From the IMG/VR virus record IMGVR_UViG_2706794697_000003: 5,816 nt of DNA; one strand, 5' to 3'. Origin of the DNA: a virus. Its lineage: Duplodnaviria; Heunggongvirae; Uroviricota; Caudoviricetes. Shown piece by piece: positions 82-5,816 of the stretch. Numbering within the stretch: the first letter of the stretch is position 1; every line of letters begins with the position of its first letter. A program made the position numbers and the translations under genes. Below the pieces are notes generated by a model that ran no database searches, was not told the origin of the DNA, and worked only from the letters and a program-made list of their open reading frames with translations.

Positions 82-1329
82 TTAACTGATCGGCATTACA
101 CCACCGGGACGCGGATTCATATCTTCCAGGTCGCGGCAGTCATTGGAAGAGTAAATTCCCCAGTTGATCCCGGTGGCGTAGGCTTCAAAACGGGACTTCA
201 TATCCCCGCGCAGTAACGCCCCGGCGTTAAATTTGGCGTAATAAACGCCCTGCTTACTTTTTCGTACCAGTCCGGTGTTGATCCGCTGTTCGATGCGGGT
301 CAGATACGGCACCAGTGAATAGTTGATAAATCCCAGCCCCAGCTCTTCGATATTGTTGAAGGTGGCGCGATCGGTGTTCTGCACCATGTGCAACGGCACC
401 CGGAACAGACGACAGATTTCTTCCAGCTGAAACTTGCGGGTTTCCAGGAACTGACTGTCCTCGGCGTTCAGCGCCATCGACTTCCAGTCCAGCCCCATTT
501 CCAGAATCATCGGGCGGTGAGCATTGCCAAGCCCCGTGTGACACTCCTCAAAATCTTTCTTCAGACGCTCGTAAGCATCCGGCGTGAGCTTTTGTTCCGT
601 ACGCAACACACCGGATGTCACCGCACCATTACTAAACAACCTGGCACCGTGCTCCTCGGTTGCCGCTGCCAGTGAAATGGCCTCACGCGCATACGCAATG
701 GGATTCAGCCCGACAAGTCCATCCAGCGTCAGGGTGCGCACATGCCAGATTTCATTCTGGGTCAACACATCCACGGAACCATCCGGAAACGTCACCTGAT
801 AAACCGGCTGCCACTGGCTGTTCAGCTTCGGTTCCACACAGCCCGGATCTATCGGAAGAAGCTCCACCACTTCTCCCAGTGCCTTTACCTTGTAGGCGTA
901 AAAATTCCCCCGTAGACACAGGCAGACAATAACCAGCTCCCAGAATTCCTGCGGTGTCATGTAGCCATTAGGTTTTGCCGAAACCAACTTATGCAGTCGT
1001 TCATCCACCGCCCGTGTTTTCAGGGTACCGCTGATTTTGTAGAGACTGCAGGGCAGCATACCAACAGACTCTGCCAGCACCCTGACGCAAGAATAGACCG
1101 CCGTCAGGCGCATGGCCCGCTGGCTACTGATCCGCTTTCCGGTATAGGTGTCGTATGACAGCCCGATAGCATCAGCAGTTCTGCTGGCGTGGTCACCGGC
1201 ACATCGCTTTTTCGTTGAAATAATCCCGAAAAGAACACTATTTACCTCCGCCGACAGACTGCCGTGTACGGTCGAGATATCGCGCCACCAGCCACGACCA
1301 GAACAGGCACAGCGCCCCGGCAACAACAA
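82..1329 (-). CDS. Phage portal protein (HK97-family-like); start codon uncertain
   Basis: Long minus-strand ORF directly downstream of the terminase large subunit. The segment [23 protein letters not shown] resembles, from memory, the conserved N-terminal region of HK97-type portals. The ORF-track start at 1329 is a TTG with no clear ribosome-binding site and overlaps the 1238-1420 ORF by 92 nt. The first in-frame ATG is at 1113, which would cut off the conserved motif. The true start therefore probably lies between 1113 and 1329 and may be non-canonical. Confidence 0.75.
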
Positions 1330-1420
1330 AACCCGCCGGGGGATAAATCAGCCAGGCACCATACGCCAGCAAAAGCGCACCCAGCACGCCCACCAGAGGC
1401 GCGAGAATCAGCATGATCAT
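1238..1420 (-). CDS. Small hydrophobic protein (60 aa, two predicted transmembrane helices), hypothetical
   Basis: ATG at 1420 with GAGGT 6-7 nt upstream, 11 nt after the terL stop. Codon usage is E. coli-like (CTG, GCG, GTG rich). The product has two hydrophobic stretches and a charged C-terminus ([14 protein letters not shown]). The overlapping portal-frame translation over the same bases looks like out-of-frame junk (rich in C, W, R). Confidence 0.45.
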
Positions 1421-1431
1421 AATTACCTCAG

Positions 1432-3165
1432 TTAAAGCGAGCGGATCCCGTAGGACTCAATGTGGTCAGACAGCGTGTCTTCTTTCTCGTACAGCATGGC
1501 TCTGCCAACCGCCATAATCAGCGCAACTGCACCATCGATTTTGTTTTCCGCCTGCTCTTTGACGGGTTTCACCACATCATCGTTACCCGGCATGTTTTTG
1601 CCGACCACGTTGCCGATACACCAGGTCATGATGGGATTGCCGTCATGATGAAAACGTCCCGATTCAATCGCTGCTTCCAGCTCTTTCATCGGATCGGACA
1701 TATTGGTGAAGTTCTGGACGATAGTGACGGGATTCAGGTCTTCATCAGCAAGGTCATGTGACAACCCGGTCGCCCCGAAGGGGTCGATGGGTGACTCACT
1801 GACCGGGCTGATTTTGTTCGCCGCTTTGGCCTCCTCGAGGATGTAGCGATAATCCACCTCCGCACCATCGGTAACGGTCAGAACGCCCATTTCCACCCAT
1901 TTCTGAAAGCGTTCGGCTGTCCGTCGATCTTCATTTTTCTCGACGCTGTACACCGTGTCATACGGTACCCAGAAACGCGGGGCCACACTGTAGTAATGCG
2001 TTTTACCGTCAATCTCGCGGGTATAAAGTCGCGCCATGCTGTTCATATCCAGCTTACGCGCCAGGTCAAAGGCCAGAATGCACGGCTGCCCCTCGAACTG
2101 CTCAAGGGTCAGTGATTTATCCTCGCAGCTCTGCCAGCTCACCAAGTTGAAATACGCCGAACGCGCCGACACCCAGATATTGAGGTGTTTTGTTTTAAAG
2201 ACGTTTGCCAGACGGGCGTTATTTTTCGCACGCTGCTGCTGACTTAACAAAAATTCGCGATAAACCGACACGCCAATATTTGGATTGGCTTTTTCCAGCA
2301 CCTGCGGGCCGGTCCAGTCGTCACCTTCATCAACGGTATAGATGATCCCGAACAGTTCATCGTTAGGCACCGAGCCGTTGAGCATCTCGATGACTTCCCG
2401 CCGCTTGTCGTAGCACGGCCCCTCAATGTTGTACCCGGCGGTGGTGATGGCCCACATCAGTGGCTGACGTCGCGCCCCCATCCCGGTAAGCATTGTGGTA
2501 TAAAGCGCATCGGTGGCATGCTCGTGATATTCATCAACCACGGCACAGTGGGGTGATGAACCATCACCTGGGTTGCCGATCAGCGGTTCAAACCGCGCGC
2601 CATCCTCCGGACGGTTCATGTTTGAGGCGTTAACCTCAATCCCGAACGCTTCCGTCAGCATGGGTGTGCGTTTACACATCAGTCGCGCCGGGCGAAAGAC
2701 TTCCCACGCCTGTTTCTCTGTCGTGGCACCGGAATACACTTCCGCGCCAAACTCGTTATCACAGGCAAAACAATACAGGGCAACACCGGCAGAGATTGCT
2801 GATTTGCCGTTCTTACGGGGGATTTCGGTGTACACCTCCCGGAAGCGGCGCAACCGGGTGCCTTTATTGACCCAGCCAAACGCACAGCAGATCACAAATA
2901 GCTGCCACGGCTCCAGCGTGATGGGCATCCGTTTGAATGCCCACTCCCCCTTGGTGTGCGGCAACAGCTGAATAAATTTCGCGGCCCGTTCAGCCAGGTC
3001 CTTGTCGAAGCGGTAACGAAACGACTTACTTTTTTCCGCCATCAGGTCATCAAGATGGCGCTGGCAGGCCTGAATCACAAACTGGCAGGCAACAATCTTT
3101 CCGCGCACGACATCCCGGGCATACTGATTTGCAGCATTTACGTTGGGGTAAGATTTCCGGCTCAT
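1432..3165 (-). CDS. terL: Phage terminase large subunit (HK97-like ATPase plus nuclease)
   Basis: 577-aa ORF with a Walker A-like motif PRKNGKS and a Walker B-like motif AVVDEYHE in the N-terminal half, and a C-terminal acidic-residue region consistent with an RNaseH-like nuclease. Its start overlaps the terS stop as ATGA (3162-3165), indicating translational coupling. Confidence 0.9.
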
Positions 3166-3656
3166 GATTCGATAATTTTCAGAAACGGGTTAGTGGCTTT
3201 CTTCTGCCCCGCCAGGCCAATCAGACGCTGGCGGCTGCTGGGGTCGAGTCCGAGCATTGCCCCCGTGCTGCTCATCTCGGACTCCTGTTCTTTTTTGGCG
3301 GTCAGCTCCGGATTTTTGACCCTGCCGCCCATTGCACCGGTGATGGTGTTGCCCTGTATGGCAATATTTTTCACGGCACGTCGCCAGAACTCATAGGCCA
3401 CGCACCACCGCTCAAGTACCGCCAGGTCAGTCACGCACAGCAGGCCCTGACCGCAGAGTTCTTTGGTTGTCAGTTGCCACATGATCGTGGCGAGAGGGAG
3501 ATCTTCTTCAGCGAACCACTCTGGTGGCTCAACACCTTTGATGGGCGTAAAAACAGGTTCATCTTTGTTCAGGGCTCGCTTGCCGGGGTTTCCGGCCAGC
3601 GCCTTGCGCGCCGTTGGCTTGGGGCGACGCCCGGAACGCCCCGCCGTTCCAGCCAT
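3162..3656 (-). CDS. terS: Phage terminase small subunit (P27-family-like)
   Basis: ORF immediately upstream of terL and coupled to it. N-terminus [30 protein letters not shown] is basic, as expected for a DNA-binding small terminase. I place the start at ATG 3656 because AGGAG lies 8 nt upstream. The ORF-track GTG at 3665 sits inside that ribosome-binding site. Confidence 0.8.
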
Positions 3657-3695
3657 ATGCGGCACTCCTGGTTAAATTTCATTTTTCGCGGGTAT

Positions 3696-3777: not shown

Positions 3778-4128
3778 TCACCGGATTCGTTCGCGCGCTG
3801 TTTTCGCTTTATGGCAGGGCCAGCACAGACTCTGCAGGTTGCTGTCTGCGTCTGTTCCGCCATGCGCTTTCGGGATGATGTGGTCGACGGTTTTCGCCTC
3901 GCTCACCACACCGACACGCAGACACAACTGACACAGACCTTTATCGCGCTTCAGAATACGGGCACGAATCACCGTCCATTTTGAGCCATAGCCACGCTGG
4001 TGGCGGCTCAGTCCGCGCTGGTGCTGCACCCAGCCTTCACCGCGATGTTTATCGCAGTAACCCGAACTGTCTGTGGTTGTACCTGCACATCCACGCTTAC
4101 GGCAGGCACGTGGGATTAGTGATGGCAT
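3778..4128 (-). CDS. HNH endonuclease (phage packaging-associated)
   Basis: 116-aa ORF with GAGGT 5 nt upstream of its ATG. It has cysteine pairs and the motif DHIIPKAHGGTDADSNLQSLCWPCH, typical of HNH/zinc-finger nucleases. Its position immediately upstream of terS is typical of HK97-like cos phages. Confidence 0.85.
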   Translation of the reverse strand: MPSLIPRACRKRGCAGTTTDSSGYCDKHRGEGWVQHQRGLSRHQRGYGSKWTVIRARILKRDKGLCQLCLRVGVVSEAKTVDHIIPKAHGGTDADSNLQSLCWPCHKAKTARERIR

Positions 4129-4170: not shown

Positions 4171-4429
4171 CTACTTAATGCACTGAGTGCGGATATACTC
4201 CTGTGCCCCTTCCAGTTGCATCTGCATCGTCATCAGCCGCTCTCTGAGGGTGAAATAATCCCGTTCAGCGGTGTCTGCCAGTCGGGGGCTGGTTGCATTA
4301 TCCACGCCGGAGGCGGTGGTGGCTTCACGCACTGACTGACAGACTGCTTTGATGTGCAACCGACGACGACCAGCGGCAACATCAGCGCGCAGAGTTTCAT
4401 TTTCAGCTTTCGCATCAGCTAACTCCTTC
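4171..4429 (-). CDS. Rz: Rz i-spanin, C-terminal part only (5' end lost in the N-run)
   Basis: Translation KELADAKAENETLRADVAAGRRRLHIKAVCQSVREATTASGVDNATSPRLADTAERDYFTLRERLMTMQMQLEGAQEYIRTQCIK closely matches the C-terminal two-thirds of lambda Rz as I recall it. It carries Rz1 embedded in another frame. The ORF track joins it to the endolysin only because the N-run translates as X. Confidence 0.85.
4233..4415 (-). CDS. Rz1: Rz1 o-spanin (outer-membrane lipoprotein), embedded in Rz
   Basis: 60-aa ORF MRKLKMKLCALMLPLVVVGCTSKQ... with a lipobox (LVVVGC) and a proline-rich stretch (PPPPP). AAGGAG lies 8 nt upstream of the ATG. It sits entirely inside Rz in a different frame, as in lambda. Confidence 0.85.
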   Translation of the reverse strand: MRKLKMKLCALMLPLVVVGCTSKQSVSQCVKPPPPPAWIMQPAPDWQTPLNGIISPSESG

Positions 4430-4679
4430 NNNNNNNNNNNNNNNNNNNNNNNNNNNNNNNNNNNNNNNNNNNNNNNNNNNNNNNNNNNNNNNNNNNNNNN
4501 NNNNNNNNNNNNNNNNNNNNNNNNNNNNNNNNNNNNNNNNNNNNNNNNNNNNNNNNNNNNNNNNNNNNNNNNNNNNNNNNNNNNNNNNNNNNNNNNNNNN
4601 NNNNNNNNNNNNNNNNNNNNNNNNNNNNNNNNNNNNNNNNNNNNNNNNNNNNNNNNNNNNNNNNNNNNNNNNNNNNNNN
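4430..4679. other. 250-nt run of N (assembly gap or masked sequence)
   Basis: Uninterrupted n characters. It covers the 3' end of the endolysin gene and the 5' end of Rz. Confidence 1.
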
Positions 4680-4965
4680 CCGGTATATCGACTTTGATGT
4701 ACGGGTTAATTTGTCTGGCGACAGTGGCAAGGTCTTTATTCAGGAGGGCTTTGCATTCTGCTTCGGTATACGTTTTACCGAGCATGATGTCTTTTCCGGT
4801 GTGTCCGTGACATACAGTCCATACACCAATGATATCTTTGTATGGTATGTAGCTGACACCTTCCAGACCATCGTTACCACCTGGGCCAGTGATTAACACA
4901 GATGCTATAGCAACAGCCCCACCACCAATAGCAGCTGCAACAGCCTTGCGTAATGATGGCGACAT
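4680..4965 (-). CDS. R: SAR endolysin (phage-21 R-like lysozyme), N-terminal 95 aa only (3' end lost in the N-run)
   Basis: N-terminus [30 protein letters not shown] is a Gly/Ala-rich signal-anchor-release segment. It is followed by [25 protein letters not shown], the catalytic region of T4-lysozyme-like muramidases. Its ATG (4965-4963) overlaps the holin stop as TAATG. Confidence 0.85.
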
Positions 4966-5180
4966 TATTCACCTCTCGCAGCCTTACGCTTGTCTTCTCT
5001 TATTTTGAAATACAGATTTGTCAGATAAGTCAGAAGCCCCAGAAGCAGACTTCCCAGCACACCAATCGCAGCCCACTGTGATGGACTGACCTGATCCAAC
5101 CACTGCAAAAACCAGTAGCCGGCACTGCCGGCGGAGGTGCCGTAGGCAATGCCTGTTGATATTTTTTCCATCTGATACAT
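4965..5180 (-). CDS. S: Holin (phage-21 S-like pinholin), two possible starts M1 and M4
   Basis: 71-aa [74 protein letters not shown] with two transmembrane segments and a charged C-terminus. ATG codons at 5180 and 5171 match the dual-start arrangement of lambdoid holins. It is translationally coupled to the endolysin. Confidence 0.9.
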
Positions 5181-5210
5181 ATCCCGCCCCCCGACAGACC
5201 TGTGCTATCG

Positions 5211-5247
5211 GAAAGAAAAAAGGCCATCAGCAAAACTCTGATGGCCT
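5211..5247 (-). terminator. Rho-independent terminator upstream of the holin (tR'-like position)
   Basis: Perfect 10-bp inverted repeat aggccatcag (5221-5230) / ctgatggcct (5238-5247) with a 7-nt loop. On the minus strand it is followed by UUUUUUCUUUC (plus-strand gaaagaaaaaa, 5211-5220). It ends about 30 nt upstream of the holin ATG. Confidence 0.7.
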
Positions 5248-5291
5248 GAATCACCTTTACCAATATTGTATGAAAAAACACGCACGACTAA

Positions 5292-5320
5292 TTGACAATA
5301 ATTTTCATTTCCATTAAAAA
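5292..5320 (+). promoter_or_regulatory. Candidate sigma70 promoter on the plus strand
   Basis: Consensus -35 TTGACA (5292-5297), a 17-nt spacer, then TAAAAA (5315-5320). The -10 is weak because it lacks the conserved final T. It lies about 35 nt upstream of the plus-strand terminator-like hairpin. Confidence 0.25.
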
Positions 5321-5355
5321 AGATCGCGTAGCATTCTTAATTCATGAGGAACTTT

Positions 5356-5422
5356 ACCCGCCAGCAATCTGAGTAGCGAAAGCTGTTCATCCCCAATGTT
5401 TTTGCTGGCGGGTCCTTTTTTC
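5356..5422 (+). terminator. Plus-strand terminator-like structure (12-bp stem, large loop, T-tract)
   Basis: Perfect 12-bp inverted repeat acccgccagcaa (5356-5367) / ttgctggcgggt (5402-5413) followed by CCTTTTTTCT. The 34-nt loop contains a small AGC-GAAA-GCT hairpin. The T-tract follows only on the plus strand. Confidence 0.4.
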
Positions 5423-5724
5423 TACGGTCCTCCTCCCCGGAGGGGGGCATTTCATTATTTTTCTAATCGTTACTGGTGAGAAGGCGGAAGAAAAAGCCAG
5501 TTCTTCGCCCCTAAATAACAGCATGATTCCAGTCCATGCAAAATCTGATTTCCAGCTCACACATACCGAGCACTGTACAAAAAACCGCCAGCCAAGGCAG
5601 TTAAGAGTGTGTTCCCGGGGTTTGCTTAGAATATTTTGTAAGTTGTCCGAAGAGATATTTACAACACCAGAATGATGCATTATCAGTCCCCTGCCAGAGG
5701 TTCACTACGTAACCTGACCGACAA

Positions 5725-5816
5725 TGAAGTGGCACACTGAATTTGGCCACCTGAACAGAGGTGATATGCTCACCTCAGAACAACACAGGTGCTCCAATGA
5801 AAAAAAGAAATTTTAG
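5725..5816 (+). mobile_element. Left end of an IS3-family insertion sequence (IS911-like), partial
   Basis: The element starts with TGAAGTGG, a TG-initiated terminal repeat typical of the IS3 family. A 7-bp stem gaggtga/tcacctc follows, then AGGTG and an ATG at 5798 encoding MKKRNF, which matches the N-terminus of IS911 OrfA as I recall it. The element runs off the window end. Confidence 0.6.
5798..5816 (+). CDS. IS3-family transposase OrfA, first 6 codons only
   Basis: ATG at 5798 with AGGTG 7 nt upstream; translation MKKRNF, then the window ends. Confidence 0.5.

Follow-up and report, generated by a model that had tools for sequence, protein, structure and literature searches.

We describe here a small gene between the terminase large subunit gene (terL) and the portal gene in a 5,816-nucleotide stretch of tailed-phage DNA (Caudoviricetes; IMG/VR record IMGVR_UViG_2706794697_000003), referred to throughout as the window. 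The minus-strand open reading frame (ORF) at positions 1238-1420 is almost certainly a genuine protein-coding gene of the YmfR family and a member of the late module in which it sits, and its product is predicted to be a hairpin of two membrane helices. As to function, we tentatively favor a role for YmfR as a late-expressed membrane accessory of the portal and packaging module, a reading that is weighed below against several rivals.

The frame between terL and the portal gene is a catalogued gene under selection

The ORF listing and the sequence give a minus-strand frame of 60 codons followed by TAG, with the ATG at 1420-1418 and the stop at 1240-1238. The gene and its ribosome-binding site were placed as follows.

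1238..1420, minus strand: ymfR coding sequence, from the ORF listing, identity to K-12 YmfR, the match to PHROG 502 and the RefSeq naming of relatives
1425..1429, minus strand: ymfR Shine-Dalgarno (SD) sequence GAGGT, 4 nt before the ATG and 2 nt past the terL stop (TAA, 1434-1432)

With 66 ORFs of 30 aa or more in the window, the length of the frame is by itself weak evidence for a gene. We regard ymfR as real because of its near-identity to a known protein, its match to PHROG 502, its status as the only open frame at this position, the constraint on its codons and the breadth of its family. The window protein is identical at 58 of 60 positions (97%) to YmfR (b1150) of Escherichia coli K-12, which is encoded by the cryptic prophage e14, and it matches PHROG 502, 'membrane protein', at E 2.8e-28 with 55 of the 58 profile positions covered. 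ymfR is, in other words, an already catalogued gene (YmfR, PHROG 502); the InterPro family of YmfR is IPR020297, and relatives carry the RefSeq name 'protein YmfR'. The K-12 and window copies share their length and their slot, which in K-12 lies between the terminase remnant aaaE/ymfN and the portal remnant beeE. They differ at residues 53 and 54 (R53/Q54 in the window, Q53/S54 in K-12) and in their surroundings, with deletions in e14 versus an intact terL and a portal gene broken by a frameshift and an IS4 element in the window.

The 461 bases around ymfR find a match in 1,599 of 5,426 complete E. coli genomes, in 1,162 of them at a coverage of at least 80%, and the records listed annotate 'protein YmfR'. 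Homologues also occur in the isolated phages phiP27, ST64B (near sb3/sb4), SfI, SfII and SfIV, and in phage records they are labelled 'membrane protein', 'hypothetical' or, on the basis of position, 'head-tail joining protein W'. Pipeline labels of this kind, 'head-tail joining protein W' as well as moron, amount to guesses based on position. Profile searches, which an earlier note on this DNA had proposed as a check, returned the PHROG 502 match and no toxin or defence profile: searches of Pfam, NCBIfam, PADLOC and PDB sequences with YmfR gave noise only, and in PADLOC, which covers anti-phage defence, the window protein was without a match while two relatives reached noise level (E 0.1-0.23).

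A protein 94-97% identical to the E. coli-type protein of the window is also found in a metagenome-assembled genome named 'Bacillota bacterium' (L003) and in 'Enterococcus phage Efm 3-10' (1,764 bp); in both records ymfR is probably the result of contamination or misbinning. A fragment of an ABC transporter (L015) was a spurious pattern match and does not belong to the YmfR family.

Across 12 relatives, the ymfR frame is the sole one of the six that is open throughout. Each of the other five carries stop codons in at least half of these relatives, and the antisense ORFs at 1148-1435 and 1264-1416 were dismissed on account of stops in those frames. Comparing E. coli-type copies with those of Mangrovibacter or Citrobacter by the Nei-Gojobori method, we obtained a ratio of nonsynonymous to synonymous substitution rates (dN/dS) of 0.11-0.24 for codons 1-47, at dS 0.7-1.8, and a near-neutral ratio of about 0.4-2.7 for codons 48-60. 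This pattern indicates that the two-helix core of YmfR is under purifying selection and that the C-terminal tail drifts. An exhaustive search with a YmfR profile retrieved 399 representative clusters at E <= 1e-3, most of those listed being ~50-70 aa long. The earlier note had made its proposal hinge on conservation of the reading frame among related prophages, and the frame proved to be conserved in related loci.

ymfR is coupled to the portal gene

The junction of ymfR with the portal gene contains the following elements.

1245..1249, minus strand: portal SD sequence GGAGG, inside ymfR codons G58-G59, from junction sequences
1236..1240, minus strand: TAGTG stop/start overlap of ymfR and the portal gene; the RefSeq portal start is the last base of the ymfR stop
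98..1238, minus strand: portal gene (PF04860, Pfam E 3e-107), a pseudogene starting at GTG 1238, from alignment to the intact portal of a relative (L001)

The small gene is closely packed between its neighbors, with 11 nt separating it from terL and 1 nt of overlap with the portal gene. The earlier note had described a 60-aa hydrophobic ORF with a good ribosome-binding site, and the site does look usable: GAGGT lies 4 nt before the ATG, and the grand average of hydropathy (GRAVY) of the product is 1.16. The SD junction of ymfR is identical in three relatives (L001, L034 and L006) and is found as a GAGG variant in others (L007-L013). At the downstream end, a GGAGG or GGGG portal SD stands 7-8 nt upstream of the portal start, and purine-rich SD-like motifs occupy the last codons of the small gene at 10 close and 8 distant loci. 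The invariance of the C-terminal GG[EDK] is best explained by dual coding, in which these codons also spell the portal SD, and we dropped the invariant GG as a protein-level feature for this reason. The 1-nt stop/start overlap, in the form of TAGTG, TAATG or TGATG, recurs in close relatives (L001, L005-L013) and in most distant loci, and in these same close relatives, whose portal genes are intact, tblastn puts portal residue 1 at the codon that overlaps the ymfR stop. To judge from these junctions, ymfR is translationally coupled to the portal gene.

The portal gene of the window is itself broken. Compared with the intact portal of L001 it has a 1-nt deletion near 1176, which shifts the frame after about 21 codons and carries the portal into the frame of the ORF at 82-1329 (415 aa, TTG 1329). 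Upstream of 1176 that ORF has no portal homology, and the TTG-1329 'portal' ORF is a frameshift artefact. Portal homology ends at about 98-109, where IS4 begins; positions 1-108 of the window correspond to ~108 bases at the end of an IS4 element, which have matches in more than 2,500 E. coli records and share 97-98% identity with the IS4 copies listed. Because the same portal lesions recur in four IMG/VR contigs (L016-L019), which also encode a 100% identical small protein, we take them to reflect a fixed, decaying prophage rather than a sequencing error.

These features bear on the possibility that the ORF encodes no functional protein, being either a spacer that delivers ribosomes to the portal start or a part of a portal whose translation begins at TTG 1329. 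It is true that translation of the ORF feeds the portal start, as the stop/start overlap and the embedded SD show, and that an ORF running from TTG 1329 to 82 exists in the window. Neither version, however, accounts for purifying selection at the protein level, for a motif that is conserved across the 399 clusters or for the stops that interrupt the five other frames in relatives. Translation of the portal from TTG 1329, which the earlier note had singled out as evidence that would count against a separate small gene, also fails on two further points: the frame joins the portal only through the deletion near 1176, and the portal of intact relatives starts at the ymfR stop. We consider it extremely unlikely that the ORF yields no functional protein.

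The position of ymfR is conserved across distant relatives

The genes described in the window all lie on the minus strand, in the order holin, lysozyme, Rz/Rz1, HNH, terS, terL, ymfR and portal. Those immediately preceding ymfR are as follows.

3778..4128, minus strand: HNH endonuclease gene preceding terS (Pfam HNH, E 1.6e-16), as in the HK97 gp74-type packaging arrangement
3162..3665, minus strand: terS, P27-family terminase small subunit (Terminase_4, Pfam)
1432..3165, minus strand: terL, terminase large subunit (TerL_ATPase and TerL_nuclease, Pfam), intact and directly upstream of ymfR

The same terL-ymfR-portal layout is present in close relatives (L001, L005-L012). At greater distance we inspected eight loci of the YmfR family, from Marinobacter, Nitrobacter, Gilliamella and several metagenomes, and in all eight the family member lies between TerL (PF03354/PF20441) and Phage_portal (PF04860). 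Terminase_4 is found upstream in six (L096, L097, L100, L103, L104 and L105) and HNH upstream of terS/terL in five (L096, L103, L105 and, weakly, L098 and L104); an S78 or S49 protease follows downstream in all eight, and Phage_capsid in seven, that is, wherever the locus reaches far enough. Stop/start overlaps with terL, with the portal gene or with both are usual in these loci. TerL is 21-43% identical to that of the window in seven of the eight (79% in the remaining one, L105), the portal is 34-43% identical, and the small protein is 31-59% identical over its best local match of 35-57 residues. For deep pairs, the mean full-length identity is 0.37 for the small protein, 0.30 for TerL and 0.35 for the portal. 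On the strength of this gene order, ymfR belongs to a late operon that reads HNH - TerS (P27 type) - TerL - YmfR - portal - protease - major capsid protein.

The exceptional locus, a Gilliamella-type contig (L105, 2283-5441), is a mosaic in which TerL is 79%, the small membrane protein 40% and the portal 37% identical to their counterparts in the window. This pattern points to a recombination joint at the boundary between terL and the small gene and, since the small gene shares the divergence of the portal and not the similarity of terL, suggests that the gene travels with the portal side. A second candidate for a terL mosaic, L013, was rejected, as terL is merely deleted there.

In a rough neighbor-joining tree of portal proteins, 15 gene-carrying portals fall in one deep clade with a single gene-less exception (L179), and two further gene-carrying portals lie elsewhere. 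YmfR thus appears to be an ancient component, passed on mostly by vertical descent, of one large portal lineage, that of HK97-like phages of Proteobacteria.

YmfR is predicted to be a membrane-embedded helical hairpin

The protein was divided into the following predicted segments.

1346..1417, minus strand: predicted transmembrane helix 1, residues 2-25 (hydropathy, AlphaFold2), with conserved G11, G14, S/A19, Y20, G21, A22 and W23
1337..1345, minus strand: predicted short periplasmic turn Y26-P27-P28, the center of YGAWxIYxPAG (AlphaFold2 helix break at residue 26)
1283..1336, minus strand: predicted transmembrane helix 2, residues 29-46 (hydropathy, AlphaFold2), with a small-residue stripe G30, A34, C38, S42, A46
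1241..1282, minus strand: predicted cytoplasmic C-terminal tail, residues 47-60, with basic R47 at the membrane and otherwise fast-evolving

The earlier note had read the product as a small two-helix membrane protein, in agreement with the predictions. The hydropathy profile has two hydrophobic stretches, and AlphaFold2 (AF2) models a helix at residues 2-25, a break at Y26 and a second helix at residues 27-57, with a mean predicted local distance difference test score (pLDDT) of 73. Together, hydropathy and the AF2 model indicate that YmfR would be a helical hairpin with nearly all of its length embedded in the membrane. When the AF2 hairpin was compared with BFVD and PDB by Foldseek, no match had an E value below 1, and those returned were generic helical hairpins.

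We determined column conservation over 48 diverse members of the family. The clusters retrieved by the profile search share the motif G11xxG14 ... [SA][YF]GAW[LM][IV]Y.PAG[YF]I..G35, then WS...AR; the window protein carries this motif, and hhalign aligns the close YmfR alignment with the distant one at a probability of 99.8%. The conserved small positions are G11, G14, S/A19, G21, A22, A29, G30, A/G34, G35, S/A42 and A/S46. Along the helix 2 stripe, the fraction of small residues at positions 30, 34, 38, 42 and 46 is 1.00, 0.81, 0.50, 1.00 and 1.00, respectively, and G35 is invariant. An aromatic belt near the periplasmic face (Y20, W23, Y26 and F/Y31) is accompanied by the conserved P28, with Y26 kept in 30, P28 in 39 and R/K47 in 41 of the 48 members. 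This pattern of conservation suggests tight packing of helices against one another within the membrane; small-xxx-small stripes of this kind are typical of oligomerising or pore-forming membrane peptides.

With regard to topology, we predict that both termini face the cytoplasm, with a very small periplasmic turn, YPP(AG), because the N-terminal extensions of diverse members are basic (41 K+R versus 2 D+E), the turn is almost uncharged and R/K47 follows helix 2. A variant compatible with any function is that helix 1 is a candidate cleavable signal peptide, which would leave a mature single-pass protein of ~39 residues with its N-terminus out and its C-terminus in. Small residues occupy positions 19 and 21 (-3 and -1 before A22) in 94% and 100% of diverse members, respectively, the 14 residues from 5 to 18 make up a hydrophobic stretch, and the basic N-terminal extensions would fit such a peptide. 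Yet G11 and G14, in what would be its hydrophobic core, are 92-100% conserved family-wide, which is not expected of a disposable segment, and positive charge is missing from the N-terminal region of the E. coli version. We regard cleavage as improbable.

YmfR may act as a membrane accessory of the portal and packaging module

The earlier note had held that the function of the small protein could not be read from its sequence, a judgement with which we concur. Taking position, coupling and predicted structure together, we propose the following. YmfR would be made only when the late operon is transcribed, in lytic growth or upon induction, and would insert in the inner membrane with both ends in the cytoplasm. 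There it may act through helix-helix packing, with itself or with a membrane partner, using as contact surfaces the stripes G11/G14/G21 and G30-A34-C38-S42-A46 and the aromatic/proline turn (Y20, W23, Y26, P28). It could then serve the genes to which it is coupled, by tethering the nascent portal or the packaging machinery to the membrane or organising it there, and such an activity might improve head assembly or packaging while not being essential for HK97-type assembly generally. We favor a role in the portal and packaging module, tentatively and as one reading among several, because of the deep conservation of position, the coupling to the portal gene, the expected expression from the late operon, with which the rise of ymfR among the e14 genes discussed further on agrees, and a parallel with DUF1056 proteins of other phages, which is described below.

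A number of observations weigh against such a role. HK97 itself, as the earlier note had correctly stated, has no gene between terL and the portal gene: terL (542-2056) directly abuts the portal gene (2056-3330). To place HK97 among its relatives, we analysed 74 viral loci out of 80 that had been selected for similarity to an alignment whose first member is the HK97 portal. The gap between terL and the portal gene is at most 40 nt in 44 of these, and a YmfR-family ORF is present in only two (L171 and L180). Because HK97 and most of the sampled relatives are without the gene, basic assembly of the HK97 type does not need YmfR. The exposed cytoplasmic tail is short and is the least conserved part of the protein, which is awkward for a specific contact with portal or terminase. 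Co-variation of the small protein with its neighbors was not significant in a Mantel test (portal, rho 0.25, p 0.12; terL, p 0.30), in which 60 residues make for a noisy signal. We found no N-terminal feature of the portal specific to gene-carrying loci, as MxxFSxLF also occurs in portals from loci that lack the gene. An association of proheads with the membrane has been demonstrated in T4 alone (PMC3185693). Finally, the literature on ymfR/b1150, PHROG 502, DUF1056 and small membrane proteins adjacent to terminase or portal genes consisted of e14 deletion lists, one transcriptome table and general reviews, and contained no experiment on any member of the YmfR family.

Among the same 74 loci, 24 have inserts of more than 120 nt between terL and the portal gene, with other contents that include toxin-antitoxin-like pairs. 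In three loci (L128, 1922-2547; L144, 1078-1703; L176, 2174-2795) the junction holds a pair of ~100-aa ORFs that resemble an antitoxin and a toxin. Such pairs imply that the terL-portal junction also serves as a cargo insertion site in other HK97-like lineages.

In the main rival of the portal and packaging role, YmfR is a late membrane effector unrelated to head assembly. On this account the hairpin would oligomerise, or bind a conserved component of the host inner membrane, during lytic growth, so as to alter the proton motive force, the timing of lysis, DNA entry by other phages or an envelope process, and the portal-side slot would be an old and stable passenger site. The location of the lysis genes is relevant here, and in the window they are as follows.

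4965-5180, minus strand: holin S of the P21 type (PF04971, Pfam)
4680-4965, minus strand: lysozyme (PF00959, Pfam)
4174-4428, minus strand: Rz (PF03245), with an embedded Rz1 lipoprotein at 4233-4415

Positions 4171-5180 make up a complete phage-21-type lysis cassette, in which a masked run of 250 N (4430-4679) artificially joins the lysozyme and Rz into one ORF of 264 aa. Upstream of the holin, positions 5181-5816 are AT-richer (GC 0.44) with ORFs that look unconserved, among them a 97-aa ORF (5387-5680) without a Pfam match.

An effector would explain why the conserved part of YmfR lies within the membrane and the periplasmic turn rather than in the cytoplasm, and would fit the small-xxx-small stripes. 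It is also in keeping with the dispensability of the gene in HK97 and many relatives, with the proximity of a lysis cassette, which in the window, L096, L103 and L105 lies a short way upstream within this late region, and with the acceptance of unrelated cargo at the terL-portal junction of other lineages. However, a fixed and coupled position over very deep divergence is unusual for genes of lysis, exclusion or host takeover. The lysis genes that accompany the family also vary, being a P21-type holin with lysozyme and Rz/Rz1 in the window, Phage_holin_3_5 in L103 and lysozyme with DUF2570 in L105, and because family members keep such different company a single shared lysis partner is unlikely. 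The window already has a complete set of holin, endolysin, Rz and Rz1, there are no matches to holin, toxin or defence profiles, and expression restricted to the late phase would leave little rationale for superinfection exclusion. On balance we judge an effector of this kind possible but somewhat unlikely.

ymfR does not look like a recent accessory insertion

The earlier note had also suggested that the small gene is an accessory insertion, and this part of its reading did not hold up. The hallmarks of a moron have been defined (PMC3594210), and we looked for them at ymfR. A scan of positions 900-1800 that was confined to sigma-70 and intrinsic-terminator consensus patterns found no promoter-like site and two terminator-like sites, neither of which flanks ymfR: one (1182-1201) lies on the opposite strand, and the other (922-909) lies within the portal gene, ~316 nt downstream. 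The GC content at third codon positions (GC3) is 0.672 in ymfR and 0.651 in terL, where 40% of windows are as high or higher. Total GC is higher in ymfR (0.607 versus 0.545 in terL), and since the excess is confined to codon positions 1 and 2 we attribute it to amino-acid composition. As for its distribution, ymfR is absent from HK97 and from 72 of the 74 sampled relatives, and is nearly constant in its own deep portal clade, with one loss (L179). The outcome of the scan and the typical GC3, together with the coupling to the portal gene and the retention of the slot in all eight distant loci, lead us to conclude that ymfR does not look like a recent moron-type insertion and instead resembles a conserved, coupled member of the HNH-terminase-portal module.

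The corresponding functional proposal is that YmfR is a moron-type accessory expressed from the repressed prophage, where it would act in superinfection exclusion like HK97 gp15, as a toxin-like peptide or in lysogenic conversion. Several points speak for this: HK97 lacks the gene, PHROG places family 502 in the category 'moron, auxiliary metabolic gene and host takeover', and HK97 gp15 shows that a structural operon can contain the gene of a small exclusion protein of the inner membrane (PMC3594210). In addition, ymfR is intact in degraded prophages (the window, and e14 of K-12 with its terminase and portal pseudogenes), and its total GC is high (0.61 versus 0.54 for terL). On the other hand, no promoter or terminator match flanks ymfR on its own strand, its GC3 is typical of its neighbors, it is tightly coupled in translation on both sides, and its presence within the deep portal clade is near-constant rather than patchy. 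An ORF of 183 nt would be expected to survive by chance in a decaying prophage, and there is a counter-example to preferential preservation of ymfR: in Shigella flexneri SFBU0723 (L011, 3994-4182) the 5' half of the gene contains a frameshift, whereas terL and the portal gene on either side align over their full length at 98-99% identity. The search of PADLOC gave no match. Lastly, ymfR of e14 is up-regulated (log2 4.5) along with the other e14 genes by LP-600, a treatment reported in the same work to induce the SOS response as well (PMC10012262), and such e14-wide up-regulation is unexpected for a gene expressed constitutively from a repressed prophage. We consider a moron-type role highly improbable.

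Comparison with known systems

Among the small membrane proteins of phages, YmfR resembles class II holins and the pinholin S21, in that it is small, has two transmembrane helices, is predicted to have both termini in the cytoplasm and combines a charged C-terminus with small-residue stripes. In contrast to a pinholin gene, ymfR lies outside the lysis cassette (4171-5180), 2.7 kb downstream and past terS and terL; no holin-family Pfam match was obtained for YmfR, and the window has a P21-type holin of its own.

The label 'head-tail joining protein W' invites comparison with lambda gpW, likewise encoded by a small gene (~60-70 codons) between the large terminase and portal genes. The gpW protein of lambda is a soluble head-completion protein. 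YmfR is a hydrophobic two-helix protein with no Pfam match at all, and we reject the identification as positional only.

HK97 gp15 is similar to YmfR in being a small inner-membrane protein within the morphogenetic operon of an HK97-type phage (PMC3594210). Its gene is a separate transcription unit of deviant GC that is active in the prophage and patchily distributed in relatives (PMC3594210), whereas YmfR has no matching transcription signals of its own, a typical GC3 and a deeply conserved position.

Initiation of the T4 head involves a membrane protein that contacts the portal (the gp40/gp20 system; PMC3185693). This is a functional precedent only on the assumption that YmfR has the task of tethering or nucleating the portal at the inner membrane, and if membrane tethering of the portal or packaging machinery were true of YmfR, it would extend to HK97-like phages a paradigm now limited to T4.

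The closest parallel in position and architecture comes from proteins of the DUF1056 family (PF06341), examples of which are found at the following places.

2424-2603 of L102: Sfi21 orf59c (Streptococcus)
2479-2688 of L188: BK5-T ORF4 (Lactococcus)
2583-2774 of L189: Javan385 gene 22 (Streptococcus)

These proteins have 59-69 aa, two hydrophobic segments and a basic N-terminus, and their genes lie between terL and the portal gene of an HK97-like head module, near or overlapping the portal start; BK5-T ORF4 ends in ...KKGGD and overlaps it. They have been labelled 'head-tail joining' or 'capsid and scaffold' by position, without evidence. They differ from YmfR in their Gram-positive hosts and in having no YGAWxIYxPAG motif. 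The DUF1056 Pfam model matched neither YmfR nor seven diverse members of its family, while Sfi21 orf59c matches it at E 7e-10, and homology of the two families was rejected (hhalign probability 0.4%). YmfR and DUF1056 are either homologues too divergent to be recognised as such or two families of similar proteins that came to occupy the slot separately, and under both readings the parallel suggests that the position between terL and the portal gene matters.

Taken by itself, YmfR is an ordinary annotated hypothetical gene, of modest interest as a conserved unknown in a well-studied module. The occurrence of the unrelated DUF1056 proteins in the same slot and with the same architecture in Gram-positive phages points beyond this, to a membrane function linked to position. 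The question is cheap to test, given a gene of 183 nt and plaque-forming carriers in SfI, SfII, SfIV and phiP27. One bold answer, which we think doubtful at present, is that YmfR hairpins and DUF1056 proteins are inner-membrane anchors or nucleators of the portal ring or the packaging motor; if so, an entire class among the HK97-like phages would start head assembly, or package its DNA, at the cytoplasmic membrane.

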